From Dorea ammoniilytica (GTDB taxonomy: Bacteria > Bacillota > Clostridia > Lachnospirales > Lachnospiraceae): a stretch of 32,000 bases of DNA. The position numbers and the translations under genes were made by a program. Where the stretch lies: NCBI RefSeq assembly GCF_025567415.1, contig NZ_JAOQJV010000004.1, forward strand, positions 41,903 through 73,902. Direction: 5' to 3'. The first letter of the stretch is position 1. The number at the start of each line of letters is the position of its first letter. This document shows, piece after piece, positions 1 through 21,082 of this stretch. The notes below the pieces were generated by a model. It saw only the letters and a program-made list of their open reading frames with translations. It did no database searches and had not been told where the DNA came from.

Positions 1-724
1 CCAAATATTTCATCAGAGACTTTAATCCAGCATTACTTAAATCCGTAAACAAGTTAACCTTTTGAATACCACAGCATACTGCTTTCGCAAGATTATCATC
101 ACCTGTTCCAGAACCTCCATGAAGAACCAGCGGAATCTGTATTTTTTCACTCAGTTCTGACAATAAATCAAATTCCAAATGCGGTTTCCCTTTATATACT
201 CCATGCGAAGTTCCTACTGCAACTGCCAGACAATCTATTCCAGTTTCTTTTACAAAAGAAACTGCTTCTTCTGGATTGGTCAGCCCCGCATTTCTTGTTT
301 CTTCATATTCAAATCCCTGACCCACATGTCCCAATTCTGCTTCAACTGACACACCAACTGCATGTGCAATTTTTACAATCTCCGCAACTTCTCGTACATT
401 CTCTTCGTAGGGAACCATAGAACGGTCTATCATCACTGAGCTAAACCCAAAACGAATCGCACTTACAATTTCTTCATACGGACCACCATGATCCAAATTC
501 AATGCTGCATACACATTTGGATATTTTCTTTCATAAAACCTTGCAATCTCAGCCGTTTCTTCTAAAAAAGGCATTCCTGCACAATCAAGGATAATCGGTG
601 CATGCATCTCTTCTGCTGCCTCAAAACATGCTTTCACGGTAATACTGCTAAACACATTTGGTGCTGCCACGCCATATTTTCTTTTTTTTGCATCATTTAA
701 TATTTCTGCCATTGATAATATCAT
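1..724 (-). CDS. class II ketose-bisphosphate aldolase (FBA / tagatose-bisphosphate aldolase family); 3' end cut by the window edge
   Basis: Not in the ORF track because there is no stop in the window. Manual minus-strand translation from the ATG at 722-724 gives MILSMAEILNDAKKRKYGVAAPNVF..APIILDCAG..NLDHGG..VEAELGHVG..LVLHGGSG, the class II aldolase blocks. GGAGG lies 6 nt upstream. Confidence 0.8.
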   Translation of the reverse strand, partial: MILSMAEILNDAKKRKYGVAAPNVFSSITVKACFEAAEEMHAPIILDCAGMPFLEETAEIARFYERKYPNVYAALNLDHGGPYEEIVSAIRFGFSSVMIDRSMVPYEENVREVAEIVKIAHAVGVSVEAELGHVGQGFEYEETRNAGLTNPEEAVSFVKETGIDCLAVAVGTSHGVYKGKPHLEFDLLSELSEKIQIPLVLHGGSGTGDDNLAKAVCCGIQKVNLFTDLSNAGLKSLMKYL

Positions 725-764
725 TGTCTTCCTCCTTACCCTACGCACATTTTATTTCAATCTG

Positions 765-1607
765 CTAAAACAGCCCAATAAATGCACCTAAAATACATAT
801 CAACACGATCCCCAGTGAAATCAGTCCATATTTCTGGCTCTTATTTTTCAAAATATAATAAATGCCGAAAACTACTAACAAAGGAAGAATTCCAGGAGCT
901 ATGCTATCCAAAATGTCCTGCAGAATAATCTCAGTTCCTGCAATTTTAAACTTAAGGGCAGTTGTAAGTGTTACATATGAAGCACTTAATGCTCCCATCA
1001 TGAACAGTCCCAGAATACTTGTTGCAGAAATCAGTTCCTTGACCCATCCTGCCTGCAAAATACTTTTTACAGATTCCTTTCCAATCTTGTATCCTAACGC
1101 CCACAGATTTTTTCCTATAAAAAACGTAATCAGCATAAATGCAAATGGAATAATTGCTCCAAGTACATTTCCGGTAATTCCAAATGTCACTGCAATTCCA
1201 TATATGATAGTTTTCAATGTGCCCCAGTCAATTGTATCTCCGATTCCTGATAATGGACCCATTAATCCGGTCTTAATACCTGTAATTGCTCCATCTGTAA
1301 TTTCACCCTCGTTAGCACGCTCTTCTTCCATAGACAATGTAATTCCATGAATCGGTGTACTCCATGTACCCTGAGAATTAAAAAAGTTCAAATGTCTGAG
1401 CAGTGCTCCGCTCAATTCCCCTTTGTCGGTATACAGCTTCTTCAAACAAGGAATCATACTATAACAAAACGCTACTCCCTGCTGTCTTTCGTAACAATTG
1501 GACACCTCAGCATCAAAATACCATCTGTAAAATGATTTATTGATATCTTTCTTTGTCAACAATACCTGCTCTTTACTATTCATCTTTTTTTCAACTGTAT
1601 TCTCCAT
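765..1607 (-). CDS. PTS mannose/fructose/sorbose-family EIID component
   Basis: ORF 765..1673. The likely start is the internal ATG at 1607 (MENTVEKK..), preceded by AAGGAGGGG. This start also avoids overlap with the IIC stop at 1622. The protein is multi-TM with a typical IID N-terminus (FYRWYF..SNCYERQQ). Confidence 0.85.
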   Translation of the reverse strand: MENTVEKKMNSKEQVLLTKKDINKSFYRWYFDAEVSNCYERQQGVAFCYSMIPCLKKLYTDKGELSGALLRHLNFFNSQGTWSTPIHGITLSMEEERANEGEITDGAITGIKTGLMGPLSGIGDTIDWGTLKTIIYGIAVTFGITGNVLGAIIPFAFMLITFFIGKNLWALGYKIGKESVKSILQAGWVKELISATSILGLFMMGALSASYVTLTTALKFKIAGTEIILQDILDSIAPGILPLLVVFGIYYILKNKSQKYGLISLGIVLICILGAFIGLF

Positions 1608-1621
1608 TTGAATCCCCTCCT

Positions 1622-2365
1622 TTACTTGGCCATCTGTTCTCTGCGCAGGAACGTGATCAATAATGCTATACATGTTCCAAAGATTGCAGCTGCCATTGTG
1701 CTAATTCCCAAATACTGAACCGCAAAAAATCCAATAATAAAAAATGGAAGATAAATATTTTTGCCAATAATAAAAATCGTAATTGCAAATCCTAATGCAG
1801 GGAGTGTTGATCCAGTAACTGACAATCCGTGTGTAAGCCATTCCGGAATCACATCCAATAACTTCTCTACAACATCTGCTCCCAGATAAATAGCCGCAAA
1901 TACAATCGGGAATCTCAATAAAAATCCCAGTGCAAGAGGATACGCAACCGCACAGCGTTCGATTCCTTTTACATTTCCCTGTTCTGCATAAGCATCTGCC
2001 TTATGCGCAAACACTGCCTGTAACGTTCTTCTAATCTGATCCTGAAATACGCCCAGCAGACCAAATGGAACGGCTAGTGTCACTGCTGCTGCAGGATCCA
2101 TTCCGGTTAATAACGCAATTGGAATTGAAATACATCCTGCCAGACATTCATCTGCTGGAATATTTGCTCCAGCTGCTACCATTCCAAGATATACCATTTC
2201 TACATTTGCTCCTATTTTCATCGCTGTACCGACATCTCCTGCAATAATTCCAAAAGGAAGTGCCATCACAATCGGTTGACAGATAACCGCATGAAATGTA
2301 TATCCCATTTTACTTTGTCCGATCCACCACCAAATTCCTGCTGCTAATGCTAATGCAAATACCAT
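1622..2365 (-). CDS. PTS mannose-family EIIC component
   Basis: 247-aa polytopic membrane protein, IIC(Man)-like. AGGAGG RBS. It sits between the IIB and IID genes. Confidence 0.85.
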   Translation of the reverse strand: MVFALALAAGIWWWIGQSKMGYTFHAVICQPIVMALPFGIIAGDVGTAMKIGANVEMVYLGMVAAGANIPADECLAGCISIPIALLTGMDPAAAVTLAVPFGLLGVFQDQIRRTLQAVFAHKADAYAEQGNVKGIERCAVAYPLALGFLLRFPIVFAAIYLGADVVEKLLDVIPEWLTHGLSVTGSTLPALGFAITIFIIGKNIYLPFFIIGFFAVQYLGISTMAAAIFGTCIALLITFLRREQMAK

Positions 2366-2377
2366 AATCTTATCCTC

Positions 2378-2869
2378 CTATCCCTCAAACGTTCTTTTAA
2401 TCTTATCGAAATCCATTCTTGGTTCTTCCGGTATGATATGAATATAAATTTCAGTTCCTTTTTGATGCATTTCCTCTAACAGATCCATATCCGCCTGATT
2501 CAATGAAACCGCACGCAATATCGTCACTCGCCCTGGTTCGTTTGGTATGCCCCCAATCTGCAAGCTAGAAATCGGAACGCCCTTCTGTGCTGTCCGCATA
2601 CATGATTCAACATCTTTAAACAACAACATCACCGTTCCCGTTCCAAATTCATCTTTTTCCCATTCCTCTGCTGCCTTATCAACTGATATAATCTCAACAG
2701 ACACATTTTTTGGTGCGGCAGCCGCATAGATCATGACCATAAAATCATCTTTTGATAATTCGTCATCAATGATAATAATCCGATTCGCTTTCGCAATCTT
2801 CACCCATTTTGTGATAACCTGCCCATGAATCAAACGACTATCCAGGCGTACTAATGAAATTTTTGCCAT
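2378..2869 (-). CDS. PTS mannose-family EIIB component (copy 2, adjacent to IIC/IID)
   Basis: N-terminal LVRLDSRLIHGQV motif (phospho-His of IIB-Man). 163 aa, with an RBS. Confidence 0.85.
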   Translation of the reverse strand: MAKISLVRLDSRLIHGQVITKWVKIAKANRIIIIDDELSKDDFMVMIYAAAAPKNVSVEIISVDKAAEEWEKDEFGTGTVMLLFKDVESCMRTAQKGVPISSLQIGGIPNEPGRVTILRAVSLNQADMDLLEEMHQKGTEIYIHIIPEEPRMDFDKIKRTFEG

Positions 2870-2881
2870 ACTAATCCTCTC

Positions 2882-3265
2882 CTATCTTTTTAAATTTAAT
2901 ATTTTTTCTTTTACTGATATTTCTATCTTGTCAACAAGTTCTCCACCGTAATACGTATTTCTCAGATTATCCGCACATATCAGCATTTCCATATTCAAAC
3001 CACATACTGCATAGACCGTTCCATACTTCTTTGCATAGACACCGGCTATATTCGACGGTGTTCCCCCTGCAAGATCAGTCAATAGCAAAACATTTTCTGC
3101 ATTTTCTATCGCTGCATCTATGCGCTGCATATAATTAGAAATGGAATCCTCTGGCATCAGGCTCAGTGTTTCACAGCATTCTATTTTTCCTACAACCATC
3201 TGAGCAGACTGTAATAATTCTTCTCCCCAGCCTCCATGTGTTAACAGTATTATTTTTGTTTTCAT
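2882..3265 (-). CDS. PTS mannose-family EIIA component (copy 2)
   Basis: MKTKIILLTHGGWGEEL.. has the THG phospho-His motif of IIA-Man. 127 aa. Confidence 0.8.
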   Translation of the reverse strand: MKTKIILLTHGGWGEELLQSAQMVVGKIECCETLSLMPEDSISNYMQRIDAAIENAENVLLLTDLAGGTPSNIAGVYAKKYGTVYAVCGLNMEMLICADNLRNTYYGGELVDKIEISVKEKILNLKR

Positions 3266-3284
3266 ACAATTTTCCTCTTTGCTG

Positions 3285-3749
3285 TTATATAAGATCTCTG
3301 ATATACACTACTTCATTATCTGGAACCATCTGTATATAAAGAACTGTCCCATCCTCCGTCAAACTTTTTATAATTTCTTCTTCATGCCCAGACACATATA
3401 TATTTTCATATAATTCCTTTTTGCCAGGAGCAAATGGAAGCCTGCAGATATTTACTGTTTTTATTTCAGTTCCCTTCTCATATATTCTCCACAATGTATC
3501 CAATGTTCTTAACAGTACAAGTACATTTGCATCCGCTATCATAACAGCTTCAGCACCTTCATCTGTACTATAAAAAAACACTTCTACAGACTCAGGAACC
3601 GTCATTGTTAGTACACCTTGTAAAATAGGATCCGTTGCCACCTGATCATCAATGATATATAATTTACTGCATGACGCATGTTCGAGCCATTTAAAAAGAA
3701 TCTGTCCATGAACCAAACGTTCATCAACCCGAAAAAATATTTCATTCAT
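3285..3749 (-). CDS. PTS mannose-family EIIB component (copy 1, promoter-proximal)
   Basis: FRVDERLVHGQI motif. The ATG at 3749 is preceded by GAGGTG with 8-nt spacing. The ORF-track start at 3752 is a TTG. Confidence 0.8.
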   Translation of the reverse strand: MNEIFFRVDERLVHGQILFKWLEHASCSKLYIIDDQVATDPILQGVLTMTVPESVEVFFYSTDEGAEAVMIADANVLVLLRTLDTLWRIYEKGTEIKTVNICRLPFAPGKKELYENIYVSGHEEEIIKSLTEDGTVLYIQMVPDNEVVYIRDLI

Positions 3750-3767
3750 CAATTAATCACCTCTTCA

Positions 3768-4163
3768 TCAGCTGATCAGTTCTTTCATATTTACGATTCC
3801 ATTTTTTCCTCCTTCCATTGCTACTTCCGGAAGACTGTTTAGTGAAATTTCTGTCCTATTCTCCAATACATTAATCAACATTGGTAGATTCAGTCCTGTC
3901 ACGCATTGAATATTTTCTTCCCTCAAGCAGGATGCAGTCACATTGCAAGGACTTCCGCCGAGCAGATCGACAAGAACGATCACACCGTCACCATCATCTA
4001 ATTCTTTAGATTTCTCTCTTACCTTGCGCAATAGTTCCTGCACATCATCGCCATGATTTAATGTCAGTGCTTCCAGCTTATCGTGATGACCGAAAATCAA
4101 CTCCATACTTTTAATAATGGACTCGCTGAAATTTCCGTGAGTCACAACCAACACACCAATCAT
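3768..4163 (-). CDS. PTS mannose-family EIIA component (copy 1, promoter-proximal)
   Basis: MIGVLVVTHGNFSES.. IIA-Man motif. GAGGTG RBS. This is the first gene after the sigma-54 promoter. Confidence 0.8.
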   Translation of the reverse strand: MIGVLVVTHGNFSESIIKSMELIFGHHDKLEALTLNHGDDVQELLRKVREKSKELDDGDGVIVLVDLLGGSPCNVTASCLREENIQCVTGLNLPMLINVLENRTEISLNSLPEVAMEGGKNGIVNMKELIS

Positions 4164-4205
4164 TACCCATCACCTCATTTCTTTTTTCTTTTATTTATTT
4201 ATAGA

Positions 4206-4220
4206 GCAAATTGCGTGCCA
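4206..4220 (-). promoter_or_regulatory. sigma-54 (-24/-12) promoter of the PTS operon
   Basis: The minus strand reads TGGCAC-GCAAT-TTGC, an exact GG-N10-GC consensus. It ends 43 nt upstream of the first IIA start codon (ATG at 4163). A LevR-type activator and rpoN are encoded nearby. Confidence 0.85.
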
Positions 4221-4259
4221 GCTTTGTGTGTTGTTTTTCTGCATAAAGTGTGTTTAGAC

Positions 4260-4307
4260 AAAAAAGTATCGATCTATAACGCATTACCTGCGTCATAAAC
4301 CGATACT
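4260..4307 (-). terminator. rho-independent terminator downstream of the LevR-like gene
   Basis: The minus strand reads AGTATCGGTTTATGACGCA-ggtaa-TGCGTTATAGATCGATACT followed by TTTTT. I paired a 19-bp stem by hand (16 Watson-Crick plus 3 G.U pairs). Confidence 0.8.
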
Positions 4308-4313
4308 TTCATC

Positions 4314-7079
4314 TTATATATTTTCCATCATTTCTATCAAATACACAATTTCTGAATCCGGAATATCAATATGCAACATATGTTCAATATCTCCCAAACT
4401 CTGCTTGATTCTATTAAACAGTGTCTCATACTTCTTTTTTATCTCTTCCGTCTGTTTATGCTGTATAATTTCTCCCTGCATAATACGTTCCAGCATACAT
4501 GCCGTATGAATTACATAACGAAATTTAATATCCTTTCTGTTTTTCCCCTGAGTCGTCAGTTCCTCAAACGATTTCAGTAGCAATGGAATAATCTTTGCCG
4601 GATTAAGAAAAGCCAGTATCCCCGAAAGCGTCTCAGCTAATATTTCTGTCTTTACATCGCTCTCCTGTTCATTCGAAATATTCAAATCCGATGCATTCGA
4701 TAATATATGTTCCAGCCGACGCATTCCCTCCCCCGCAATCAATTCATCGACAGAAATATATGGTACACCGTCCAATTTCAAATCTACTGTTCCAACTACA
4801 GCATCAATCCTTTTCCGCTGCAGTCCCTCTTTCCCATTCTGCACGTCTACGGCCTGCCTGAAATCCATGCACTGTATATGCACCATATCTTTCAATGCTC
4901 CTGGGAGCATTTCCATGATAATATCTTTGATTTTTACAGCTGTTCCCTGTCCGGTAAAACATGTCGTTATAATCCTGTGCTGGATACACCCCATATTCTT
5001 CTCATCTTGATTCTTTATCAGGAACTGAAATGTCTGTTTCAAATCTGCATAGATTTCATCCAAGGACATATCTTGCATCAATGACTTTCTTAATGCTTCC
5101 AGCACAATCGCGGTCGAAGCAAGTGTTATGGTTCTCACTTTAATTCCGGTTTTCTGTTCAATCAATTCTCCCATCATGGTCAGTGAACCCATATCAGTTA
5201 GCAGCAGGACTCCCTTGCCCTCATCGATTTCCTTCACCATTGCCACAGCTTTTTCAAACATAATTTCAGTAGACATATCCAACGGCATATCAAGTGCTTT
5301 ACAATGATCCGTATTCATCAGCTGATTAACAACTTCTGACATACTGCTCGCAGTTGAATTACCATGAGCCATAACCATTATGCCTGTATACTGTTTTATC
5401 TGTTCATTCGAAACACATAAAAACATTGTCAGGTATACCAATTCTCGTTCTGGTATCTGAACATCGAGTTCCTCTTCCAGTAGCCTTTTAATTGTCTTTG
5501 CTACTCGAAATTCTTTCGGATGATTTAATGCAATGTCACTGCCAACCTCTTCCCTTATCGGAATTCCGTTTTCAATCCGTTCGAGCATGGCATTTACGTG
5601 CATTGTCATTCCAATCTTAGCCTGTTCAGATAATTTTCTTTCCAACCGCACTTCTGCAAATTGAATCACTTCTTCAACTGCATAATACACATTGGCATTT
5701 ATAATTTTCAACAGATTCTTTCTGCCATCCTCCTGATCTGTCACATGATATTTTTCCATCAGCTGTTCCATATATCGGTCCAGATCTTCCTGTAATATCC
5801 CTGTAATCTGCCCCTTTGTTCTTCCCTGCTGTTTAAAAGTCTGATATTTCTCCGAAATAATATCATATAGCGACTGTTTTTGATTGCCGATTGTTTCTTC
5901 ACCTTCAAAAAAATGATAATCATCCGAATATCTCAAAAAATCAATCAGATCATTCTTTTGATTTTGATGTTCTAAACGGCCTTTTTGGATATACTCAGGC
6001 AGTACCGGCAATTCCACCGTAACATACTGCAGTTTATCTACCTTATACTGTAAAAAGGCTCTTGCACAGACCAGCTGAATATCTGCTTTCAGCTGTCCGA
6101 TATTGCCTGGACAATAATATAACAGAAGTGCTATGAGTGCCTCTTTATAAACTCTGATCGGCACTCCCACCTTTTTTTGTTCATTTACAAAGAACATCTC
6201 TATCAGCTGCAGACGTTCCACTATAGGGCGTTCATTCAATGCTGGCAAATGGATTACAACAGGCATACGCCGCAAAAATGTCTTTAAAAGAACTGTATTA
6301 ATATTTTCTGTCGTAGCACCGATAATCAGTACATCTGCCTCTCTGAATTTATCTGTTTCACCCAGACGCCGATAGATTCCTTTGTCCATCAATAAAAATA
6401 GCATCTCCTGACCTTCCGGAGGCAGGCGGTGAATTTCATCCAACAGCAAAATTCCTCCATCCGCCTGCTCAACAAGTCCAATTTTATCCTTTTCTGCACC
6501 AGTATAGGCTCCTTTTTTACATCCAAACAACTGTGACAGGATCAGCTGAGGATTTTGTGCATATTCTGCACAATTAAAAACAATCAGTTTTTCCTTTTCA
6601 CGAATTATCCCCGATTGTGCCGCATACTCATACATCTTTTCTGCAAATGTTGTTTTTCCCGTCCCAGTCGGTCCAGCCAAAAGTGTATGTAAGCCTCTTG
6701 GTGGATACAAAATTGCTGATTTTCCCTGTTCGATTTGAGATTTCAGCGATCCGTTCCCGCCTATCAGATTGCTAAATGCGGTTTTACCGTCTTTTTCCTC
6801 TGCTTTTTTTACTAACTCTTCACAGACTGATGCTTCCATAAACAGTACCGGTCTACTTTCTGATTTTACTACAAGACCTTCCCGCACCAATTCATTCAAA
6901 TCTCTGCTCACGTTACTTCGTTCTAATCCTAACGCCTCTGCAATCGTACCAGAATCTATTCCGGTTTTCGTTTCCTGTTCATCTACCATTTGTCGAACAC
7001 ATTGCAATATTTTTTCTTTTCTATTCAAGTCTTTAACCCTCTCTTCTAGTAAATCAATGCACCAACCAGGCGTTTCCAT
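4314..7079 (-). CDS. sigma-54-dependent transcriptional activator, LevR type (HTH - AAA+ - PRD - EIIA(Man)-like - PRD)
   Basis: Walker A GPTGTGKTT and a GAYTGA loop (GAFTGA-type sigma-54 contact motif). PRD-like segments are present. An internal IIA-Man-like block MVMAHGNSTASS and a C-terminal PRD follow. The ATG at 7079 lacks an SD, so the TTG at 7028 (GAGAGGG 8 nt upstream, giving LNRKEKIL..) is an alternative start. Confidence 0.85.
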   Translation of the reverse strand: METPGWCIDLLEERVKDLNRKEKILQCVRQMVDEQETKTGIDSGTIAEALGLERSNVSRDLNELVREGLVVKSESRPVLFMEASVCEELVKKAEEKDGKTAFSNLIGGNGSLKSQIEQGKSAILYPPRGLHTLLAGPTGTGKTTFAEKMYEYAAQSGIIREKEKLIVFNCAEYAQNPQLILSQLFGCKKGAYTGAEKDKIGLVEQADGGILLLDEIHRLPPEGQEMLFLLMDKGIYRRLGETDKFREADVLIIGATTENINTVLLKTFLRRMPVVIHLPALNERPIVERLQLIEMFFVNEQKKVGVPIRVYKEALIALLLYYCPGNIGQLKADIQLVCARAFLQYKVDKLQYVTVELPVLPEYIQKGRLEHQNQKNDLIDFLRYSDDYHFFEGEETIGNQKQSLYDIISEKYQTFKQQGRTKGQITGILQEDLDRYMEQLMEKYHVTDQEDGRKNLLKIINANVYYAVEEVIQFAEVRLERKLSEQAKIGMTMHVNAMLERIENGIPIREEVGSDIALNHPKEFRVAKTIKRLLEEELDVQIPERELVYLTMFLCVSNEQIKQYTGIMVMAHGNSTASSMSEVVNQLMNTDHCKALDMPLDMSTEIMFEKAVAMVKEIDEGKGVLLLTDMGSLTMMGELIEQKTGIKVRTITLASTAIVLEALRKSLMQDMSLDEIYADLKQTFQFLIKNQDEKNMGCIQHRIITTCFTGQGTAVKIKDIIMEMLPGALKDMVHIQCMDFRQAVDVQNGKEGLQRKRIDAVVGTVDLKLDGVPYISVDELIAGEGMRRLEHILSNASDLNISNEQESDVKTEILAETLSGILAFLNPAKIIPLLLKSFEELTTQGKNRKDIKFRYVIHTACMLERIMQGEIIQHKQTEEIKKKYETLFNRIKQSLGDIEHMLHIDIPDSEIVYLIEMMENI

Positions 7080-7094
7080 CTATCGTTTAAAAGA

Positions 7095-7123
7095 ATTCTA
7101 TCATTTTCTCTACTAGGAGTCCA
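7095..7123 (-). promoter_or_regulatory. candidate sigma-70 promoter for the LevR-like gene
   Basis: The minus strand reads TGGACT-17 nt-TAGAAT with an extended -10 TG (TGaTAGAAT). It lies in the 94-nt gap between the ADH gene and the activator. Confidence 0.4.
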
Positions 7124-7173
7124 GAATACAGAGCTATCTTATTCCGATATCATTCCATCTGCCAGCATTTGTT

Positions 7174-8187
7174 CTAGTTAAATGTAATAATTCCTTTTAT
7201 GTATTCTTTTGGATTTGTTGTAAGCAGTTGGAAGCCTTCATTAATCTCTGTGACTGGAATTCTGTGTGTAATCAGTTTATCTGTTGGGAAAATATCTTTT
7301 ACATACGCATCCACTGCCTTTTTTAGCACATCCATATAGTTTTCACAGTACCAAGGATGAACTACATGAATAATCGGAGAACGATACATCATATTATAAG
7401 CCATTTCCTCTGTAAATATTTCATTTTTCGTATACATAGACGGTGCAAGGATCTTTCCTCTTCCTGCAATTCTAATAATCTGCAATGCTGATGCCAGGCC
7501 TTTTAAGCTTCCTGTTATTTCAATAACTACATCAAATCCTTTTCCCTTTGTAATGTTCATCATGCTTGACTGTAAATCTTCCTGCAAAGGGCATATAGTT
7601 TCAGAAGCTCCGTATTTTTCTGCCAGTTTCAGACGATCTGAATCAAAATCAATTGCTGTTAGACTTCCCAATCTATCATTTTTCAATCCAGCTATTGCCA
7701 ATAGTCCCATAAATCCACATCCAATCACAGCTACATGATCACCAAAACGTGGATTCGCTGCCTGAACAATATTTGCAACACACATCATTGGTTCTCCAAG
7801 ACAGGCATCAATAGGTTTCTCCGTATCTGGAATTTTAACAAGACGTTTATTTTCATTCAGCATCATATGACTTGTAAAGCATTCAGAAGATACTCCTGTC
7901 ACATAATCTCCCGTCTTAAATTTCGTAACACTTCTCCCTATTTCCTGTACTACAGCTACAGGCTCATGTCCCAGTCCCATTGGATATTGGATATTTTTCA
8001 CCATGGCTTCAAAACCCAGTGGACTTTTGCCCATTGCACTTGTTCCCAGATATGCAGGAACATCTGAATGACATAAACCTACACTAATCATTTTCAATAA
8101 TACTTCATCTTCTTTTAGTTCCGGCATCTGCTCTTCATATAATTCAAAATGACCAGCCCTCGTCAGTTTTGCTTTTATCCGTTTCAT
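7174..8187 (-). CDS. Zn-dependent medium-chain dehydrogenase/reductase (polyol or polyol-phosphate dehydrogenase-like)
   Basis: GLCHSD and GHEP zinc-ligand motifs and a GCGFMG Rossmann motif. There is a 4-nt overlap with the upstream transketolase C gene. Confidence 0.75.
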   Translation of the reverse strand: MKRIKAKLTRAGHFELYEEQMPELKEDEVLLKMISVGLCHSDVPAYLGTSAMGKSPLGFEAMVKNIQYPMGLGHEPVAVVQEIGRSVTKFKTGDYVTGVSSECFTSHMMLNENKRLVKIPDTEKPIDACLGEPMMCVANIVQAANPRFGDHVAVIGCGFMGLLAIAGLKNDRLGSLTAIDFDSDRLKLAEKYGASETICPLQEDLQSSMMNITKGKGFDVVIEITGSLKGLASALQIIRIAGRGKILAPSMYTKNEIFTEEMAYNMMYRSPIIHVVHPWYCENYMDVLKKAVDAYVKDIFPTDKLITHRIPVTEINEGFQLLTTNPKEYIKGIITFN

Positions 8188-9152
8188 TTTTTGCTTTTCC
8201 TTTCTATTGCTTTCTCTGCTTTTTTCACAATATCTTCTGCGGTCAGATGGAATCTCTTCTTTAAATACTCCATATCTCCAACCTCTCCAAATTCATCTTC
8301 TATGCCAATCCGTTCTACCGGTACCGGCAGGTTTTCTGCAAGCACCTCGCATACCGCACTTCCAAGACCGTTATACATAGAATGGTTTTCTGCTGTAACA
8401 ACTGCACCTGTTTCTTCTGCACATTTCAGGACAAGTTCCTTATCTAATGGCTTAATAGTAAACATATCTACCACTCTGGCAGAAATACCTTTTTCTGCTA
8501 AAACATCTGCTGCCTTCAAGGACTCTGCCGTCATAATTCCACTCGCTATAATTGTCACATCTGTACCTTCTCTGAGTTCTTTCCCTTTTCCAATCTCAAA
8601 CTCTTCCTGACTGTCATACAACCTGACAACCGCTTTTCTGGCACATCTTATATAATACATTCCTTTTAAATCCACCAACTGATGAAGCAGTTTTTCTAAC
8701 ATCACTTCATCCGTTGGCTCTATAATTGTCAGTTCTGGAAAAGCCCGCAATGCGGCTACATCTTCAAATGGCATATGTGTTCCTCCGTTGTAAGCCGCCA
8801 TAATTCCCGGATCTGAGCCAACTAATTTTACGTTCGCATGAGAATAGCATCCAGAAATAAAAATCTGATCATTTGCTCTTCTAGATATAAACGGTGCAAA
8901 CGAATGTACAAACGGGATTTTCCCTGCTGCAGACATACCACATGCTACGCCAACCATATTTGCTTCCTGAATTCCGCAATTAACAAGTTGTCCCGGATAT
9001 TGATCGATTTCATCCATTTTACTACCCATAATACAACCACCGAGATCTGCTTCTAATTCAACTACATTCTTATTTTCCCGCATTATTTTTGTAATCGTAT
9101 CTGAATATACTCCGGCCATTTTTCTTTCAGATACTGTATATGTTTTTTTCAT
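8184..9152 (-). CDS. transketolase, C-terminal (pyrimidine-binding) subunit of a split enzyme
   Basis: 322 aa with typical split-TK C-subunit sequence (..GIQEANMVGVACGMSAAGKIPF..). It is adjacent to the N-terminal subunit gene. Confidence 0.85.
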   Translation of the reverse strand: MKKTYTVSERKMAGVYSDTITKIMRENKNVVELEADLGGCIMGSKMDEIDQYPGQLVNCGIQEANMVGVACGMSAAGKIPFVHSFAPFISRRANDQIFISGCYSHANVKLVGSDPGIMAAYNGGTHMPFEDVAALRAFPELTIIEPTDEVMLEKLLHQLVDLKGMYYIRCARKAVVRLYDSQEEFEIGKGKELREGTDVTIIASGIMTAESLKAADVLAEKGISARVVDMFTIKPLDKELVLKCAEETGAVVTAENHSMYNGLGSAVCEVLAENLPVPVERIGIEDEFGEVGDMEYLKKRFHLTAEDIVKKAEKAIERKSKK

Positions 9153-9166
9153 TTTCTATAATCCTC

Positions 9167-9991
9167 CTATCGTTTCAATTTATTGACTGCATCTTCCGCC
9201 TGCTCTGCTGACACGTTAATATGATGATTTTTTAATATATTTTCCGCAAAGGAACATCCTTTTCCCTTTATTGTGTTCATCACAATCACATGAGGTCTTT
9301 CATCATTATTTCTCGCAGTTGTAATTGCAGTATTTAATTCATTAATGTTATGTCCATCTACTTCCTGAACATCCCAATGAAAACTACGGAATTTTTCAGC
9401 AAAGCTATCCATGTTGCATATTTTAGACGTCATATTGTCCAACTGCTGCTTGTTGTCATCAACAAACAGAATCAGATTACCAAGTTTTTGCTGTGCAGCA
9501 AACATAACAGCTTCCCAGTTCTGCCCTTCCTGGCTTTCTCCATCACCAATAATACAGAAAATTGTATTTTCTTTTTGTTCAATCTTCTTAGCGAACGCGA
9601 TTCCGGCAGCCACCGATAGTCCCTGTCCCAGTGAACCGGTTGTCACATCAATTCCCGGTGTCTTTGAATGATCGCAGTGGCTCGGCAATCTTGTTCCCGG
9701 CTGATTTAGGGTATCCAGCCAATCCATTGGGAAAAAGCCTTTCAACGCCAACGCTGCATACACTGCCGGGCCCGCATGACCTTTCGAGCAGATCAACCAA
9801 TCCCGTTCTTCCCATTCTGGATTATCTGCATCATATTTCATCTGTTCTCCGTACAACACACTAAGAAGATCACATATACTCATCGCGCCTCCCATATGTC
9901 CGAAACCTCTTGTTTTCATCTGACGGATTGTCTGAATCCGTATATCCGTGGCAAATTTTTCTAATTCTTCTACTCTTTTCTCTGTTAACAT
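9167..9991 (-). CDS. transketolase, N-terminal (TPP-binding) subunit of a split enzyme
   Basis: HMGGAMS and GDGESQEG TPP motifs. The ATG at 9991 is 8 nt after GGAG. The ORF-track start at 10000 is a GTG that overlaps the RBS. Confidence 0.85.
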   Translation of the reverse strand: MLTEKRVEELEKFATDIRIQTIRQMKTRGFGHMGGAMSICDLLSVLYGEQMKYDADNPEWEERDWLICSKGHAGPAVYAALALKGFFPMDWLDTLNQPGTRLPSHCDHSKTPGIDVTTGSLGQGLSVAAGIAFAKKIEQKENTIFCIIGDGESQEGQNWEAVMFAAQQKLGNLILFVDDNKQQLDNMTSKICNMDSFAEKFRSFHWDVQEVDGHNINELNTAITTARNNDERPHVIVMNTIKGKGCSFAENILKNHHINVSAEQAEDAVNKLKR

Positions 9992-10032
9992 TTTCCACAC
10001 TCCTTTGTTTTATTTTTTATTATTTTAATAAA

Positions 10033-10047
10033 GCAAAAAACATGCCA
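10033..10047 (-). promoter_or_regulatory. sigma-54 (-24/-12) promoter of the transketolase/ADH operon
   Basis: The minus strand reads TGGCAT-GTTTT-TTGC. It ends 42 nt upstream of the transketolase N start codon. Confidence 0.8.
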
Positions 10048-10084
10048 TTTTAGTGTGTTCTTTTCAAAATTTAACACACAAATT

Positions 10085-10099
10085 TGGCACGTTTTTTGC
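10085..10099 (+). promoter_or_regulatory. sigma-54 (-24/-12) promoter immediately upstream of rpoN
   Basis: The plus strand reads TGGCAC-GTTTT-TTGC, an exact consensus. It lies 13 nt before the AGGAGG RBS of rpoN and mirrors the minus-strand promoter 38 bp away. Confidence 0.7.
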
Positions 10100-10129
10100 T
10101 ATTATAAATTATAGGAGGTGATATTCATT

Positions 10130-11434
10130 ATGGAACAAGGTTTTATTTTTTCCCAAAAGCAACAACTGATATTCAGTCAAAAACAGATTCAATCTTTAAA
10201 ACTGCTTGCCATGGACAACTATGAATTAAGTACTTTTTTGCAGGAAGAATATAATGAAAACCCTTTATTGGATGTAAAAAACTCAGATTCTGCAGTTAGT
10301 CGCCCCTTTTCAAAGGCATCAGTAACATCGGATGAGACATTCCAGCCAGAGATACGCGCTCTTGATAATAATTACCTCGTTGATTTTATCATGAACCAGA
10401 TCCATTATTCCGAGTTCAGCACATTAGAATTAAAAATCATGAAGTTGATGATCCTTTTAATGGATGACAAGGGATTCTTTCCATATACGCCAGAGGATCT
10501 GATGGAGTTGTATCACATTCCTGCTGAATCCTCTGCAAAATGTCTTGGCATTTTACAAACTTTGGAACCTTCTGGAATATTCCAGCCGGATATTGCCCAT
10601 TACCTCCTGTATCAGCTTCACATCAACGGCATTGAAAATCAATCTTATACCCGCTTGATTTTAAATCATCTCGATGATATTGCATCTGGAAATCTGAGAA
10701 CTATTGCAGATGACCTCGCCATCTCTGTTCCTGAAGTCCGGCAGATGATCCGGCTGGTTAAACTTTTACCGCCTCCCCCGCTAACAGGCATTGGAGACTC
10801 CACAAACGAATATATCATTCCTGATATAATTGTTGAAAAATCTGAAAACAACTGGAATATCTCTCTGAATGATAACTGGATAGAAAATTATAGTTTAAAT
10901 GATTACTATATCCACATGATGCAGATATCTACAGACGCGCTTTTAAAAGATTACTTTGAGAAAAAATACAAACGGGTACATTTTATTTTCCAACAGATTG
11001 AACAGCGACGGAACACAATTCTTGCGATTTCAAATTCCGTTGTACAACGTCAGGAAGCTTTTTTCAACGGAACTGCACCCTTACATCCCATGACAATGTC
11101 TGATGTTGCAGACGAATTAAATCTTTCTGTCTCAACCATTAGCCGCGGCATAAAAAATAAATACATCCAATATCCAAATGGTATCGTTCCTCTCAAATCA
11201 TTGTTCTCTACAGGATTATCACAGACAGGCAATGAAGAAATCAGTTGTTCACAGGTTACTCTTCTATTACATCAACTGATTCAACATGAAAATAAAGCGA
11301 AACCATTTAGCGATCAGGCTCTTACTAACGCCCTCATTCAAAAAGGTATACATATATCTAGAAGAACCGTAACTAAGTATCGGACATTAGCAAACATCCC
11401 TAATGCTTCCGAAAGAAAAGCAACACTGATTTAA
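10130..11434 (+). CDS. rpoN: RNA polymerase sigma-54 factor
   Basis: Q/L-rich region I (FSQKQQLIFSQKQIQSLKLL..NENPLLD), a C-terminal HTH (LSVSTISRGIKNKY) and the RpoN box SRRTVTKYR. The ATG at 10130 follows AGGAGG. The ORF-track start at 10118 is a GTG inside the RBS. Confidence 0.9.
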   Translation: MEQGFIFSQKQQLIFSQKQIQSLKLLAMDNYELSTFLQEEYNENPLLDVKNSDSAVSRPFSKASVTSDETFQPEIRALDNNYLVDFIMNQIHYSEFSTLELKIMKLMILLMDDKGFFPYTPEDLMELYHIPAESSAKCLGILQTLEPSGIFQPDIAHYLLYQLHINGIENQSYTRLILNHLDDIASGNLRTIADDLAISVPEVRQMIRLVKLLPPPPLTGIGDSTNEYIIPDIIVEKSENNWNISLNDNWIENYSLNDYYIHMMQISTDALLKDYFEKKYKRVHFIFQQIEQRRNTILAISNSVVQRQEAFFNGTAPLHPMTMSDVADELNLSVSTISRGIKNKYIQYPNGIVPLKSLFSTGLSQTGNEEISCSQVTLLLHQLIQHENKAKPFSDQALTNALIQKGIHISRRTVTKYRTLANIPNASERKATLI

Positions 11435-11448
11435 CAGTGTTGCTTTTC
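11415..11448. terminator. bidirectional rho-independent terminator between convergent rpoN and lysC
   Basis: Perfect 14-bp stem GAAAAGCAACACTG / CAGTGTTGCTTTTC with a 6-nt loop that contains the rpoN TAA. A/T runs lie on both sides. Confidence 0.8.
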
Positions 11449-11449
11449 T

Positions 11450-12661
11450 TTATTCCAGCTGTCCGGCAAATCCGTCGTGTACAGCATTCAATGCTTTCTC
11501 TACATCCTTTTTATCAACCAGTACTGTAATACGGATCTCGGATGTAGCAATCATATTGATGTTAATTCTCGCATTATAGAGAGTCTCGAACATCTTAGCA
11601 GCCACACCAGGATTACTCATCATACCGGCACCGACTACAGAAATCTTAGCCACATCTCTATTGCTTGTGATTTCTTTAATCGTCAGTGCTTCTTTGTGAT
11701 CCTCCAGAATATGGATTGCATCATCCAGATCATCCTCGGATACAGTAAATGAAATATCCTTAGTTCCATCTCGTCCCACTGACTGCAGGATGATATCTAC
11801 GTTAATATTATTTTTTGCAAGTGTATTGAAAATGCGAAATGCAGTTCCCGGCTGATCGTCTACTCCGATCACTGAGATTCTTGCGGTATTCGTATCGGCT
11901 GCAACGCCTGTGATTAACATTTTTTCCATTTTGACTTTCTCCTTGATCACTGTACCTTCTGAACGGTTCAGGCTGGATCTTACCACCAGCTCTACGCCGT
12001 ATTTTTTAGCCATTTCCACCGATCTGTTATGTAAGACTTTCGCTCCAAGAGAGGCTAACTCCAGCATCTCATCATAGGTCACTTCATCCAGTTTCATCGC
12101 ATTCTTTACGATTCTCGGATCAGCTGTGTAGACACCGTCGACATCCGTAAATATCTCACACCTGTCAGCATGTAACGCCGCTGCCAGTGCCACTGCTGTG
12201 GTATCTGATCCACCTCGGCCAAGTGTCGTCAGATCATCATATTTATTAACGCCCTGAAAACCGGTCACGATTACAATCTTTCGTGAATCCAGCTCGTGGG
12301 TAATACGATCTGTATCAATCCTCTTGAATCTTGCATTGCCATACCGTTCTGTAGAATGCATCTGCACCTGAAACGCATTCAGCGATACTGCAGGCACATC
12401 CAGGCTCTGCATAGCCATAGCCATCAGGGATACGGATACCTGTTCTCCTGTTGTCAGGAGCATATCCAACTCTCTTTTCTTTGGATTAGCATGAATGCTA
12501 TGTGCCATAGCGATCAGATCATCGGTCGTATCTCCCATTGCTGACAATACTACTACTACATCATGACCGGCTCTGTAATCTTCGATGCATCTCTCTGCCA
12601 CGCGAAATATTCTTGTTTTATTAGCCACAGAACTTCCGCCAAACTTTTTTACAATTAACAT
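11450..12661 (-). CDS. lysC: aspartate kinase
   Basis: MLIVKKFGGSSV.. N-terminus, kinase core and two C-terminal ACT-like regions. 403 aa. Confidence 0.9.
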   Translation of the reverse strand: MLIVKKFGGSSVANKTRIFRVAERCIEDYRAGHDVVVVLSAMGDTTDDLIAMAHSIHANPKKRELDMLLTTGEQVSVSLMAMAMQSLDVPAVSLNAFQVQMHSTERYGNARFKRIDTDRITHELDSRKIVIVTGFQGVNKYDDLTTLGRGGSDTTAVALAAALHADRCEIFTDVDGVYTADPRIVKNAMKLDEVTYDEMLELASLGAKVLHNRSVEMAKKYGVELVVRSSLNRSEGTVIKEKVKMEKMLITGVAADTNTARISVIGVDDQPGTAFRIFNTLAKNNINVDIILQSVGRDGTKDISFTVSEDDLDDAIHILEDHKEALTIKEITSNRDVAKISVVGAGMMSNPGVAAKMFETLYNARININMIATSEIRITVLVDKKDVEKALNAVHDGFAGQLE

Positions 12662-12670
12662 AGTTCCTCC

Positions 12671-13873
12671 TTAGCATTCCAGAAGATGATCAATCAATCG
12701 ATAACCATCCTTCCAAATGCATGTGCTCTTTGCTGCTTCTTTTTCATTATATGTATGAATTCCGTCTATTGCCTTTCTACTGTCGTAGATCATATACGGA
12801 ACCGGCTCAGATGTATGTGTTCTCACACAGATCGGCGTCGGATGATCCGGAAGTATCATTAGTCTGTAATCTTCTCCCGACCGGTCCATTGCTTCCGTAA
12901 TCCTTGCCACAACACGACCGTCCACATTCTCAATTGCTGTAATCTTATCCGTCACAGAACCCATGTGTCCCATCTCATCCGGTGCTTCTACATGTACATA
13001 AGCAAAATCATAACCATCCTCTAACAATGCGTGGATTGCCGCATCTGCTTTGCCCTCATAATTGGTATGCAGTCCACCATTGGCACCTTCTACGATAATG
13101 CGATCCATATCTGCACCGACTGCAATTCCTTTCAACAGATCCACCGCCGAGATCATCACACCCTTTTTGCCGGTCTTTTCTTCAAATGATGCAAGTGCCG
13201 GTCTGGTACCTGCACCCCAGAACCATGCAGAATTAGCCGGGTTCAGTCCCTGCTTCTTACGCTCTACATTGATCGGATGATCTTTCAATATCTCATAGCT
13301 CTTCTTCATCATGTCAAGGAGTACCAGATCCTTCGGCAGGTATTCTCCAACGGTCTTTGTCAGGATATCATGCGGCGCCGTAAGTTCTAACACTTTACCA
13401 TGTTTCCAGATCAGAAGATGACGGTAACTGGTACCTGCGTAGAATTCATAACCTTCTCTTTTCAGGCCTTCTTTTAATGCCTCTAACAAAACGGTAGAAT
13501 CTTCGGTACTGATCTCACTGGAACTATGATCGATGATCTTCTGATCTTCGTAAGCACCACCATCTTCCGTCAGTGTCACAAGATTACAGCGGAACGACAC
13601 ATCATCTGCTGCCATATCTACACCGATACTGAGTGCTTCTAACGGTGATCTTCCGGTATAATAAATCTTCGGATCATATCCCATTACTGACAGATTGGCG
13701 GTATCACTTCCCGGTGCCATTCCTTCCGGCACCATAGATGCCAGTCCGATCTCCGCTTTCTCTGCAAGGCGGTCAAAATTCGGTGTATCAGCAGCTTCCA
13801 GCGTTGTCTTACCGCCCAATTTCTCCAGCGGTCTTCCTGCCATTCCGTCACTTAACACGATGATATATTTCAT
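12671..13873 (-). CDS. ApgM-type cofactor-independent phosphoglycerate-mutase homologue; likely the 'proposed homoserine kinase' clade
   Basis: MKYIIVLSDGMAGRPL..TPNFDRLA..GSDTANLSVMGYDP.. metalloenzyme-superfamily signature. It is wedged 3 nt after hom and 9 nt before lysC. Confidence 0.7.
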   Translation of the reverse strand: MKYIIVLSDGMAGRPLEKLGGKTTLEAADTPNFDRLAEKAEIGLASMVPEGMAPGSDTANLSVMGYDPKIYYTGRSPLEALSIGVDMAADDVSFRCNLVTLTEDGGAYEDQKIIDHSSSEISTEDSTVLLEALKEGLKREGYEFYAGTSYRHLLIWKHGKVLELTAPHDILTKTVGEYLPKDLVLLDMMKKSYEILKDHPINVERKKQGLNPANSAWFWGAGTRPALASFEEKTGKKGVMISAVDLLKGIAVGADMDRIIVEGANGGLHTNYEGKADAAIHALLEDGYDFAYVHVEAPDEMGHMGSVTDKITAIENVDGRVVARITEAMDRSGEDYRLMILPDHPTPICVRTHTSEPVPYMIYDSRKAIDGIHTYNEKEAAKSTCIWKDGYRLIDHLLEC

Positions 13874-13876
13874 AAA

Positions 13877-15097
13877 CTAGTCCTCCACGCGAATCATGCT
13901 GATAATATCTTCTGTATAATCAGACACTTTTTTCTCATATAAGCCCTCTTTCATGGATTCTGTCACAAATCCGAACTCTCCGGCAATCTCCGGAACTTCA
14001 ACATACTGTAGCATTCCGAAAGATGCTTCCAGTTTCTGCTGAAGTTCTTCTTTCTTACCTTTGATACGTACAAAGAAACGATGCTCAACTTCTTCCTGTT
14101 TCTGGATTTGAAGTTTCTCCTCGCTCCATCCATAGCCAAGATTATAACCGATATTCTTAACTGCTTCGACCACATCACCAACTACAGCACTGGCCGTTGG
14201 AAGCTTGCCTGCGCCACTTCCGTAGAACATCGCATCGCCCAGCATATTGCCATGTACAAATACTGAATTAAAGACTCCGTTAACACTGAACAGTGGATGA
14301 TCCTGACTCAGAAGACACGGAGATACCATGGCACTAAGCGTCTCACCATGTCTCTTGCATGTTGCAAGAAGCTTCACCGTTCGTCCCATTACCTTTGCAT
14401 ACTGCATATCTTCTACTGTTACTTTCGTAATACCTTCACAGTAAAGGTCTTCAAAATCTACCTGCTTACCGGAAATAATAGACGCCAGGATTGCAATCTT
14501 ACGGCAAGCGTCATAGCCCTCCACATCTGCCTCCGGATTACGCTCTGCAAATCCATTGTCCTGTGCCTCTTTTAACACATCATCGTATCCGGCGCCTTCA
14601 TAAAACATCTTAGTCATCATATAGTTGGTTGTTCCATTCAGAATTCCCACGATCTCTTCGATCACGTCTCCAGTCAGAGATTCATACAAGCTTCTGAGGA
14701 TTGGAATGCCTCCACCCACACTTGCTTCATAGAAGAAATTCACATTCTGCTCTTTTGCAACACGAATCAACTCTGCGCCATGCTTTGCCACCAATGCCTT
14801 ATTCGATGTAGCAACATTCTTTCCTGCCAGAAGACTTCTCTTTACAAATGTATAAGCCGGTTCAATACCACCCATCACTTCTACAACGATCTGAACTTCT
14901 TCGTCATTTACGATCTCTTCAAAATCATGAGTGATTACCTCCTGCACCGGATCTCCCGGAAAATCTCTCAGATCCAGTACATATTTTACTTCCAGTTCTT
15001 CTCCTGCTCTCTGCGCGATCACTTCACGATTGGTACGGAGTACCTCATAGACTCCGGATCCTACTGTTCCATATCCAAGCACTGCTATCTTTGCCAT
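13877..15097 (-). CDS. hom: homoserine dehydrogenase
   Basis: MAKIAVLGYGTVGSGV Rossmann N-terminus, a catalytic region and a C-terminal ACT-like domain. Its RBS lies inside the prfB 3' end. Confidence 0.9.
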   Translation of the reverse strand: MAKIAVLGYGTVGSGVYEVLRTNREVIAQRAGEELEVKYVLDLRDFPGDPVQEVITHDFEEIVNDEEVQIVVEVMGGIEPAYTFVKRSLLAGKNVATSNKALVAKHGAELIRVAKEQNVNFFYEASVGGGIPILRSLYESLTGDVIEEIVGILNGTTNYMMTKMFYEGAGYDDVLKEAQDNGFAERNPEADVEGYDACRKIAILASIISGKQVDFEDLYCEGITKVTVEDMQYAKVMGRTVKLLATCKRHGETLSAMVSPCLLSQDHPLFSVNGVFNSVFVHGNMLGDAMFYGSGAGKLPTASAVVGDVVEAVKNIGYNLGYGWSEEKLQIQKQEEVEHRFFVRIKGKKEELQQKLEASFGMLQYVEVPEIAGEFGFVTESMKEGLYEKKVSDYTEDIISMIRVED

Positions 15098-15102
15098 ATC
15101 TT

Positions 15103-16213
15103 CTACCCTTTCCTCTGTTCCTGTAAAAAAGCATTAATAAATGGTTCCAATGCTCCGTCCAGCACTGCGCCGACGTTGCTGCTCTCCGCACCTGTCCGGT
15201 GATCCTTCACCAACGTATACGGCTGCATAACATATGAACGGATCTGATTGCCAAATCCGATCTCTTTGATCTCACCACGGATATCTGACACCTTATCCGC
15301 CTGCTCCTGCTCTTTCAGGAGCTTTAACTTCGCTTTCAGCATCTGCATTGCCTTATCACGGTTATGATGCTGTGAACGTTCATTCTGGCACTGTACCACA
15401 ATTCCTGTCGGCAGATGCGTGATACGGATTGCCGATGATGTCTTATTGACATGCTGACCACCCGCTCCACTGGCTCGATAGGTATCGATCTTCAGTTCAT
15501 CATCACTGAGTTCAATATCATCAATATTATCCTCAATATCCGGAATCACATCACAGGATGCAAATGATGTCTGTCTCTTTCCTGCAGAATTAAATGGCGA
15601 AATACGCACCAGGCGGTGTACGCCTTTTTCAGACTTAAAATATCCATAGGCATTCTCACCACTGACCTCAAACGTAACCGTCTTAATCCCCGCCACATCT
15701 CCTTCCAGAAAGTCCAGTACCTTCACACCGAATCCTTTGCGCTCCGCAAATCTGCTGTACATGCGGTACAGCATGCTCGCCCAGTCACAGGACTCCGTTC
15801 CGCCAGCTCCTGCATGAAGTGTTACAATTGCATTATACTTATCATATTCGCCCGACAGAAGCGTCTGGATGCGCAGGCTCTCATAACCCTCTTCAAATGC
15901 ATTCAGCTCTTCTTCTATCTCAGGAAGCACCGATTCGTCTTCTTCCTCATACGCCATCTCAATCAACAGTCCAATATCTTCATAGCTCTGTTCCAGATGT
16001 TCCACTGTCTCTACCTGATCTTTTAGATCTTTGAGATCCTTCATAATCTTCTGGCTTTCTTCCGGTTCATCCCAGAATCCCGGTTCTTCCATCTTACGTT
16101 CTAATTCTTCAATCCTCTGTTTCTTTCCAGGGATGTCAAAGTGAATCCCTCATTTCAGCAAGTGGGCTCTCGTAAGCACTGAGCCGTCCTTTATACTGGT
16201 CCAGTTCTACCAC
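15103..16213 (-). CDS. prfB: peptide chain release factor 2, requiring a programmed +1 frameshift
   Basis: The main ORF 15103..16092 carries the GGQ motif (SGAGGQHVNKT). A short upstream frame starts at GTG 16213 (RBS AAGAGGTG): VVELDQYKGRLSAYESPLAEMRDSL-TGA. Shifting +1 at CTT TGA C joins ..DIPGKKQRIEELERKMEEPGFWD. Confidence 0.9.
16135..16141 (-). other. prfB +1 frameshift site CTT-TGA-C with an upstream SD-like GAGGGA
   Basis: The minus strand reads ATGAGGGATTCA CTT TGA C. This is the canonical RF2 autoregulatory slippery/stop context. Confidence 0.85.
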
Positions 16214-16257
16214 ACTATCACCTCTTTCTATCTTAAATGCATGAGATACTGGGACAT

Positions 16258-18822: not shown

Positions 18823-18875
18823 ATTGGTAACTCCTCGTTTTCATTAATTCTATAAAATAACTATTTTATTGTACC

Positions 18876-18904
18876 ACTAACCCTCATCCAATTCAATCAT
18901 TTCA
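18876..18904 (-). promoter_or_regulatory. candidate sigma-70 promoter for secA
   Basis: The minus strand reads TTGAAT-17 nt-TACAAT with TGg immediately upstream of the -10. It lies about 55 nt upstream of the secA ATG. Confidence 0.5.
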
Positions 18905-18964
18905 ACTACTGAAAGTACAGGATCAACCGTACAGATTCAGGTCATCAGACTCCCGCTATCATTC

Positions 18965-19738: not shown

Positions 19739-19772
19739 TCTCTTTCTCCCAATCTTATTCCTTATATAAAGA

Positions 19773-19799
19773 CAGACGGAGGAGCACATCCTCCGTCTG
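19773..19799 (-). terminator. rho-independent terminator after the repeat-lipoprotein gene
   Basis: 10-bp stem CAGACGGAGG / CCTCCGTCTG with a 7-nt loop. T-rich sequence (TCTTTATAT) follows on the minus strand. Confidence 0.6.
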
Positions 19800-19809
19800 C
19801 TTAACTCTC

Positions 19810-20118: not shown

Positions 20119-20243
20119 AGATTAAATCTCCCTTTCATGTATATTCTTTGATAATCAAGTAATACTTGGTACCAGTAATATCTGCATTATTTAAGAATAT
20201 ATACCATATCAGGCTCATTACATGAATGGAAGTATCTGGAAAA

Positions 20244-21002: not shown

Positions 21003-21025
21003 CAGAATCCTCCTATATGCTATGT

Positions 21026-21060
21026 AAGGACAGAGGGCGATCATCCCGCCGTCTGTCCTT
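21026..21060 (-). other. intercistronic stem-loop between dapA and dapB
   Basis: AAGGACAGA(G)GGCG..CGCC(G)TCTGTCCTT gives 9+4 bp with one mismatch. There is no U-tract on either strand, so it is not a canonical terminator. Confidence 0.5.
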
Positions 21061-21082
21061 GTTATATGACTTATTAACTCAC

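Follow-up and report, generated by a model that had tools for sequence, protein, structure and literature searches.

Promoter-proximal AACACAC boxes as candidate activator sites in a sigma-54 module of Dorea ammoniilytica that includes a LevR-like gene and rpoN

LevR- and CelR-type systems and the layout of the locus

In the standard picture, enhancers for sigma-54-dependent transcription are located 100–150 bp away and act by DNA looping. How activator-bound upstream DNA engages the transcription complex has been called unknown in a recent review (PMC7057263). For the Clostridiales, published enhancer distances are 100–250 bp. The closest described systems are those of LevR- and CelR-type activators, for which the sites given in the published descriptions consulted lie 40–160 bp from the promoter (PMC6615313, PMC11976118). 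In Clostridium, the LevR sites tabulated by Nie et al. (2019; Table S3, PMC6615313) are direct repeats of TGTGTGTAAA / AGTGTGTCAAA with 11–23-nt spacers. In Enterococcus faecalis, the presumed site of the LevR-like CelR at celB1/celB2 is quoted as ACACACAMAAAARRAWARTGTGTAA (PMC11976118, 2025; citing Cao et al., 2019 for CelR of Listeria).

The window analyzed here is a stretch of 32,000 nt from Dorea ammoniilytica, and all positions below refer to it. Domain searches bore out the gene calls of a preliminary description made from the sequence alone, namely a man-family PTS, a LevR-like activator, a split transketolase with a Zn-ADH, and rpoN. The genes of the locus and the terminator of the activator gene are as follows.

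765 to 4163, minus strand: man-family PTS genes IIA, IIB, IIA, IIB, IIC, and IID, assigned by domain searches
4263 to 4309, minus strand: intrinsic terminator of the activator gene, a 47-nt hairpin with a stem of about 20 bp and a T-run
4314 to 7079, minus strand: LevR-like enhancer-binding protein of 921 aa (PF00158, PF00874 twice, and PF03610)
7174 to 10000, minus strand: tktN-tktC-Zn-ADH operon (tktN, 9167–9991/10000; tktC, 8184–9152; Zn-ADH, 7174–8187)
10118 to 11434, plus strand: rpoN (sigma-54; TIGR02395, 343 bits), divergent from the tkt operon and called as 434 aa

The start codon of rpoN is likely the ATG at 10130. In orthologous contigs, the PTS operon goes on with genes for an FBP aldolase, an Fe-ADH, and a Zn-ADH. 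A gap of 94 nt separates the tkt-adh operon from the downstream activator gene; a terminator scan of this gap found none, and the activator gene is probably cotranscribed with the tkt operon. The gene content of the module would suggest catabolism of a polyol or a rare ketose. The LevR-like activator has, in order, an N-terminal winged HTH, a sigma-54 AAA+ domain, a PRD, an EIIA-Man domain, and a second PRD. Its winged HTH was recognized through weak MarR_2/TrmB matches at residues 41–80, and the AAA+ domain begins near residue 106, leaving a short linker from the N-terminal DNA-binding domain. The DagR model matches this protein below the cutoff. Elsewhere in the window (16092–16215, minus strand), the release factor 2 gene, prfB, shows the classical signal for programmed +1 frameshifting, namely CTT TGA C with a Shine-Dalgarno-like GAGGGA ahead of it, and its main ORF (15103–16092) matches the RF2 model only from profile position 31.

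As far as the published descriptions of these systems go, the Clostridium LevR system resembles the window in its HTH-AAA+-PRD-EIIA-PRD activator and its sigma-54-driven man-family PTS operon, as well as in a TGTGTGT / ACACACA core; the Clostridium sites come in repeated and often direct copies (Nie et al., 2016; PMC6615313). However, the Clostridium sites described there lie about 65–160 bp upstream of the promoter, whereas in the window one box stands at a constant distance of 5 bp from TGGCA and a second at 27 bp. Moreover, the regulon in the window, unlike that of Clostridium LevR, includes a transketolase/dehydrogenase operon and rpoN. The described E. faecalis CelR system likewise has ACACACA/TGTGT half-sites near sigma-54 promoters (–40 to –88 from the sigma-54 site), but its site is a 25-bp pseudo-palindrome with fixed internal spacing, whereas the spacing of the inverted pair in the window is not conserved and each promoter has its own box; the PTS families also differ, being lactose/cellobiose in E. 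faecalis and mannose in the window (PMC11976118). For LevR of Bacillus subtilis, the comparison is one of architecture rather than motif, and the account available gives the same activator architecture together with a PTS-controlled sigma-54 sugar operon (PMC10864463). The upstream activating sequence (UAS) of the B. subtilis levanase operon is reported there as centred at –125 and is thus remote, unlike the window box (Martin-Verstraete et al., 1992, 1994, as cited in PMC10864463).

AACACAC boxes at three sigma-54 promoters and their conservation

Three sigma-54-type promoters and four AACACAC boxes lie between these genes. Box positions are given with the T of TGGCA set at –26.

4206 to 4220, minus strand: sigma-54 (–24/–12) promoter of the PTS operon, TGGCACGCAATTTGC, a TGGCA-N6-TTGC match
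4226 to 4232, minus strand: proximal AACACAC box of the PTS promoter, 5 nt upstream of TGGCA (about –38 to –32)
4248 to 4254, minus strand: distal AACACAC box of the PTS promoter, a direct repeat 22 bp upstream (about –60 to –54)
10033 to 10047, minus strand: sigma-54 promoter of the tkt operon, TGGCATGTTTTTTGC, a TGGCA-N6-TTGC match
10053 to 10059, minus strand: proximal AACACAC box of the tkt promoter
10073 to 10079, plus strand: proximal AACACAC box of the rpoN promoter; orthologues have GACACAA, AGCACAG, and TACACAG in the same register
10085 to 10099, plus strand: sigma-54-type promoter of rpoN, TGGCACGTTTTTTGC, a TGGCA-N6-TTGC match

All three promoter sites match TGGCA-N6-TTGC exactly, with GG and GC one helical turn apart. 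The distance from the –12 GC to the gene start is 43 nt for the EIIA gene (start at 4163, with a GAGGTG ribosome-binding site), 42 nt for tktN, and 31 nt for rpoN. The genome context fits sigma-54 promoters, as rpoN (TIGR02395, 343 bits) and an activator with a GAFTGA-type motif (PF00158; the motif passed a G[AS][FY][TS]GA filter) are both present.

A sequence check recovered the three box-promoter sites exactly as first described: AACACAC-AAAGC-TGGCACGCAATTTGC for the PTS operon (4232 to 4206, minus strand), AACACAC-TAAAA-TGGCATGTTTTTTGC for the tkt operon (10059 to 10033, minus strand), and AACACAC-AAATT-TGGCACGTTTTTTGC for rpoN (10073 to 10099, plus strand). With at most one mismatch allowed, AACACAC-N5-TGGCA has three matches in the window, compared with 0.18 ± 0.39 in shuffled sequences. 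The second heptamers are also where they had been placed, as a direct copy at 4248–4254 (22 bp away) at the PTS promoter and as an inverted pair at 10053/10073 (20 bp apart) at tkt/rpoN, and the pair is centred near –45, as claimed. The preliminary description counted only two other AACACAC copies, but there are six (at 4150, 7777, 9855, 24375, 27369, and 30838), all of them on the plus strand and within ORFs. In total, the window has 10 copies versus 3.6 ± 1.9 expected. This excess is due to the four promoter copies, which sit in the 859 nt (2.7%) of the window that lack a long ORF. The copy at 4150–4156 was considered as a further site and rejected, because this GTGTGTT lies just within the EIIA gene, codes for Gly-Val-Leu, and is not kept at the DNA level in orthologues.

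The boxes of the PTS promoter end 5 and 27 bp upstream of TGGCA, which is outside the UAS range of about 60–250 bp. The earlier remark that they are far closer than usual enhancer sites is thus upheld (proximal box at about –38 to –32 versus the usual –100 to –150). The distal box lies immediately next to the T-run that ends the activator gene, so there is no non-coding room for a classical remote enhancer. The 47-nt hairpin at 4263–4309 (centred near –91) was rejected as a true enhancer because it is this terminator with its T-run, and orthologues have unrelated hairpins, or none where the box touches the stop codon. Separately, AATACACAA occurs at 4340–4348 inside the 3' end of the activator gene. 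In promoter orientation it reads TTGTGTATT (4348–4340), about 120–128 nt upstream of the PTS promoter TGGCA. It is not conserved in the orthologues examined, and may represent either a third, remote box or a coincidental match.

For comparison among loci, activator homologues were grouped at 62–65%, 54–55%, and 47% or lower identity, and 21 promoters of orthologous loci (activator 46–100% identical) were aligned on TGGCA. ACACA is found at –11 to –7 relative to the T of TGGCA in 17 of these family promoters and is off register by 1–2 nt in 4 of the 21; the sequence around and upstream of the box varies freely. Orthologues of the PTS promoter are located at the same place in loci L065, L068, L069, L060, L027, L151, and L152, and the tkt promoter is kept in L065, L068, L069, L045, and L150. 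The sigma-54 site upstream of rpoN is kept in L065 (4945–4959), L068 (4873–4887), L069 (5032–5046), and L045 (near 5141). In four loci (L068, L152, L071, and L027), the proximal box reaches the activator stop codon or overlaps it.

The distal box is not conserved, being either absent or elsewhere in the orthologous loci. The gap between the back-to-back tkt and rpoN boxes is 13 nt in the window, 8–9 nt in L045 and L069, and 52 nt in L068, and the two promoters of L065 are even further apart than in this last case. With the distal box not conserved and the tkt/rpoN gap ranging from 8 to 52 nt, the suggestion that the heptamer pair or palindrome acts as a functional unit is not supported by these comparisons. 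Because the inter-box gap is not conserved, the GTGTGTT-N13-AACACAC palindrome is a by-product of two divergent promoters and not an operator, and each AACACAC box, judged from these alignments, belongs to its own promoter. A 39-nt imperfect palindrome at 10021–10111 was also considered as an operator or an inverted duplication and was discarded for its non-conserved half-to-half spacing.

Occurrence across genomes and the probable reader of the box

The composite pattern AACACAC-N5-TGGCAYG-N4-TTGC was scanned in one genome per species for 185,579 species. This gave 58 matches, about half of which represent one conserved Streptomyces coding stretch; the species of the window is not among the 58. 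Scattered proteobacterial matches were set aside, as we estimate that chance alone would place a 7-mer at a fixed offset at least that often among so many true sigma-54 promoters. All nine Firmicute matches are upstream of a man-PTS operon beside a LevR-like gene (914–940 aa), and they represent five lineages in Clostridia, Bacilli, and Negativicutes. Among Clostridiales activators, only 48 of 490 are of the LevR type. At four non-LevR sigma-54 promoters of C. difficile with mapped transcription start sites (hadA, ord, grdG, and cdsB), the box is absent.

From an independent and more distant set of 80 LevR-like loci (27–46% identity), 51 distinct sigma-54 promoters in non-coding DNA were obtained. 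Within 100 nt upstream of them, ACAC and GTGT together occur at 20.8 per kb, compared with 4.6 per kb in other non-coding DNA of the same loci (a 4.5-fold enrichment), and the count of 106 compares with 26.5 ± 5.2 in shuffles. ACAC starts at –9, the register of the window, in 6 of the 51 promoters and at any other position in three or fewer. An in-register box is present in 6–12 of the 51 (about 12–24%) and is therefore not a general requirement of the LevR-like family. Boxes also occur away from promoters. In L151, three ATACAC(AC)TA boxes, 20 bp apart, are located upstream of the terminator (about –85 to –125). In addition, two GTGTGT boxes about 40 bp apart (7940–7985 of this locus) immediately precede the start codon of the LevR-like gene, away from any sigma-54 promoter, and these may serve autoregulation of the activator gene. 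Distal boxes far from the –24 element are found in L073, L074, and L100, and box arrays with a spacing of 10–11 or 20 bp in other LevR-like loci.

Four loci of a distant LevR-like subfamily (L126, L132, L135, and L147; 27–31% identity) share a different conserved sequence close to the promoter, GCCACTAA, which precedes TGGCA at the same register or displaced by 1 nt; their promoters lie 26–54 nt past the activator stop codon. This pattern suggests that an architecture with a box docked beside the –24 element is general and that its sequences are subfamily-specific.

The flanks of the box vary with the recognition helix of the activator. Proteins with the helix RSNVSR[DE]LN are paired with the box [AG]ACACAC, those with RNNVS.ELN with GATACAC, those with R.NASLELN with GAAACAC, and those with KRNTVS.YLN with GCCAC. 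For RSNASRYL proteins there is no proximal box, and several of the loci have distal GTGTG[CT][GA]CAC palindromes. Shared ancestry of locus and protein could account for part of this relation.

The AACACAC heptamers are probably the sites at which the LevR-like protein encoded at 4314–7079 recognizes DNA through its N-terminal winged-helix domain. The box core is the ACACA/TGTGT core published for LevR/CelR-type activators. Together with the LevR-locus specificity, the enrichment, the helix-linked flanks, and the boxes away from promoters, this match argues for the activator winged helix, rather than sigma-54, as the reader of the box. The preliminary description had offered three readings, of which the compact activator site has gained from the published core, the specificity for LevR promoters, and the helix-linked flanks; a promoter extension contacted by the holoenzyme is disfavoured, with the constant 5-nt register as the only feature that suits it better, and an operator of another regulator has found no support. 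The departure from the known pattern would lie in the position of the box and not in its motif, making the boxes a positional variant.

From the sequence, conservation, register, and LevR-locus specificity of the boxes, we infer a mechanism that involves activator binding, docking without looping, and feedback loops. The PTS would signal the substrate by setting the phosphorylation of the PRD and EIIA domains, upon which the activator would oligomerize. One activator protomer would dock on the promoter-proximal box, and the AAA+ ring would be held directly beside the closed sigma-54 complex, such that remodelling would take place with little or no DNA looping. Positions –38 to –32 are at the upstream edge of the region occupied by the sigma-54 holoenzyme, and a protomer bound there would bring the ring beside sigma-54 region I at –12. 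The fixed register and the dispensability of a second box fit this docking picture. Additional boxes on one helical face, spaced by 22 or 20 bp in this genome, may add affinity, and they appear dispensable because there are orthologues without them. As the activator gene is probably on the tkt transcript and rpoN has its own promoter of this kind, induction would also increase the amounts of activator and sigma-54. The fixed 5-nt register is atypical, because enhancer sites normally tolerate variable distances, and contact by the holoenzyme would fit it too. A single 7-bp box would also be a weak anchor for a hexamer.

That fit leads to the alternative in which the –24 element is extended upstream by the box, which would be read by the sigma-54 or RNA polymerase of this lineage and not by the activator. 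We regard this as unlikely, and two features, the rigidity of the spacing and the linked inheritance of rpoN, keep it at that level: the N5 register is strictly fixed in 17 of the 21 promoters, one box per promoter suffices while its partner is not conserved, and rpoN has been inherited with the module in five lineages, such that the sigma factor and its promoters could have co-evolved. However, an extension of the –24 element does not account for the same boxes far from any such element (the array and the pair in L151, and the boxes in L073, L074, and L100), for flanks that vary with the recognition helix of the activator, or for a register that moves by 1–2 nt in four of the family promoters. 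It also conflicts with the absence of the box from the four mapped non-LevR promoters of C. difficile and from most promoters of the distant LevR-like loci. To our knowledge, the general sigma-54 consensus of Barrios et al. (1999) has no such element, which was also counted against this alternative.

We consider it very unlikely that the box is instead an operator through which some other regulator (for example, a repressor or a catabolite-control protein) gates the three promoters together. A repressor would be well placed at the upstream edge of the holoenzyme footprint, where the box lies. Against this, the module contains no conserved gene for a second regulator, and the box does not correspond to a cre box (TGWAANCGNTNWCA). 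The spacing of the inverted repeat also varies (8–52 nt), contrary to expectation for a dimeric operator, and the motif goes with LevR-like loci in Clostridia, Bacilli, and Negativicutes alike. Least probable is an inhibitory role, in which inactive (phosphorylated) activator at –38 to –32 hinders the holoenzyme and activation comes from other sites; the box adjoins the upstream boundary expected for the closed-complex footprint, and the L151 boxes that overlap the ribosome-binding region of the activator gene suggest a repressive use of the motif, but in L068, L152, L071, and L027 the proximal box is the only one in non-coding DNA, so no alternative activating site is visible.

A module with its own rpoN

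The module consists of rpoN divergent from tktN-tktC-adh-activator-PTS-fba-ADH-ADH, in this order. The whole module is present in five lineages, i.e., the window, L065/L066, L068, L069, and L045/L060, and the genes beyond rpoN are all different in the four lineages where they were read. In L067, the module is disrupted by an inserted transposase gene. The GC content of the module is 0.39, compared with 0.44–0.47 for the neighbouring housekeeping genes (window 1–12000 versus 12001–32000). The recurrence with different flanking genes and the low GC content indicate that rpoN travels with the module, and suggest that the module is a horizontally mobile cassette carrying its own sigma-54. A megablast search of window positions 3000–11500 against plasmids gave no match.

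The conserved sigma-54-type promoter and box upstream of rpoN would imply activator-dependent positive autoregulation of the sigma factor. This site overlaps a sigma-70-like pattern, TTGGCA-17-AATTAT, and holoenzyme bound there could alternatively repress an overlapping sigma-70-like housekeeping promoter. In Rhodobacter capsulatus, rpoN (nifR4) is expressed from a sigma-54/NifA-dependent promoter. In both cases, the gene for sigma-54 lies within the one regulon that it serves and is apparently activated along with it; the cases differ in phylum, activator type, and pathway, and the case for rpoN in the window consists of a conserved promoter-like site only.

More broadly, and tentatively, the module may be a self-contained, transferable sigma-54 regulon with its own rpoN, one LevR-type activator, and their targets. 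Its enhancers would be docked single boxes, rigid with respect to the –24 element and acting without looping, and this arrangement would recur in several LevR subfamilies with helix-linked variants of the box.

If true, a natural promoter with an activator box fixed 5 bp from the –24 element would offer a compact complex (about 60 bp of DNA) for structures of a full-length activator with its DNA-binding domain. It would also mean that LevR-type activators, in which the N-terminal DNA-binding domain directly precedes the AAA+ ring, can work docked. Regulon prediction would gain as well, since site searches limited to –60 to –250 would miss such boxes. Finally, the linkage of rpoN to one sugar-utilization module and their apparent co-regulation suggest that sigma-54 can spread in a portable cassette.
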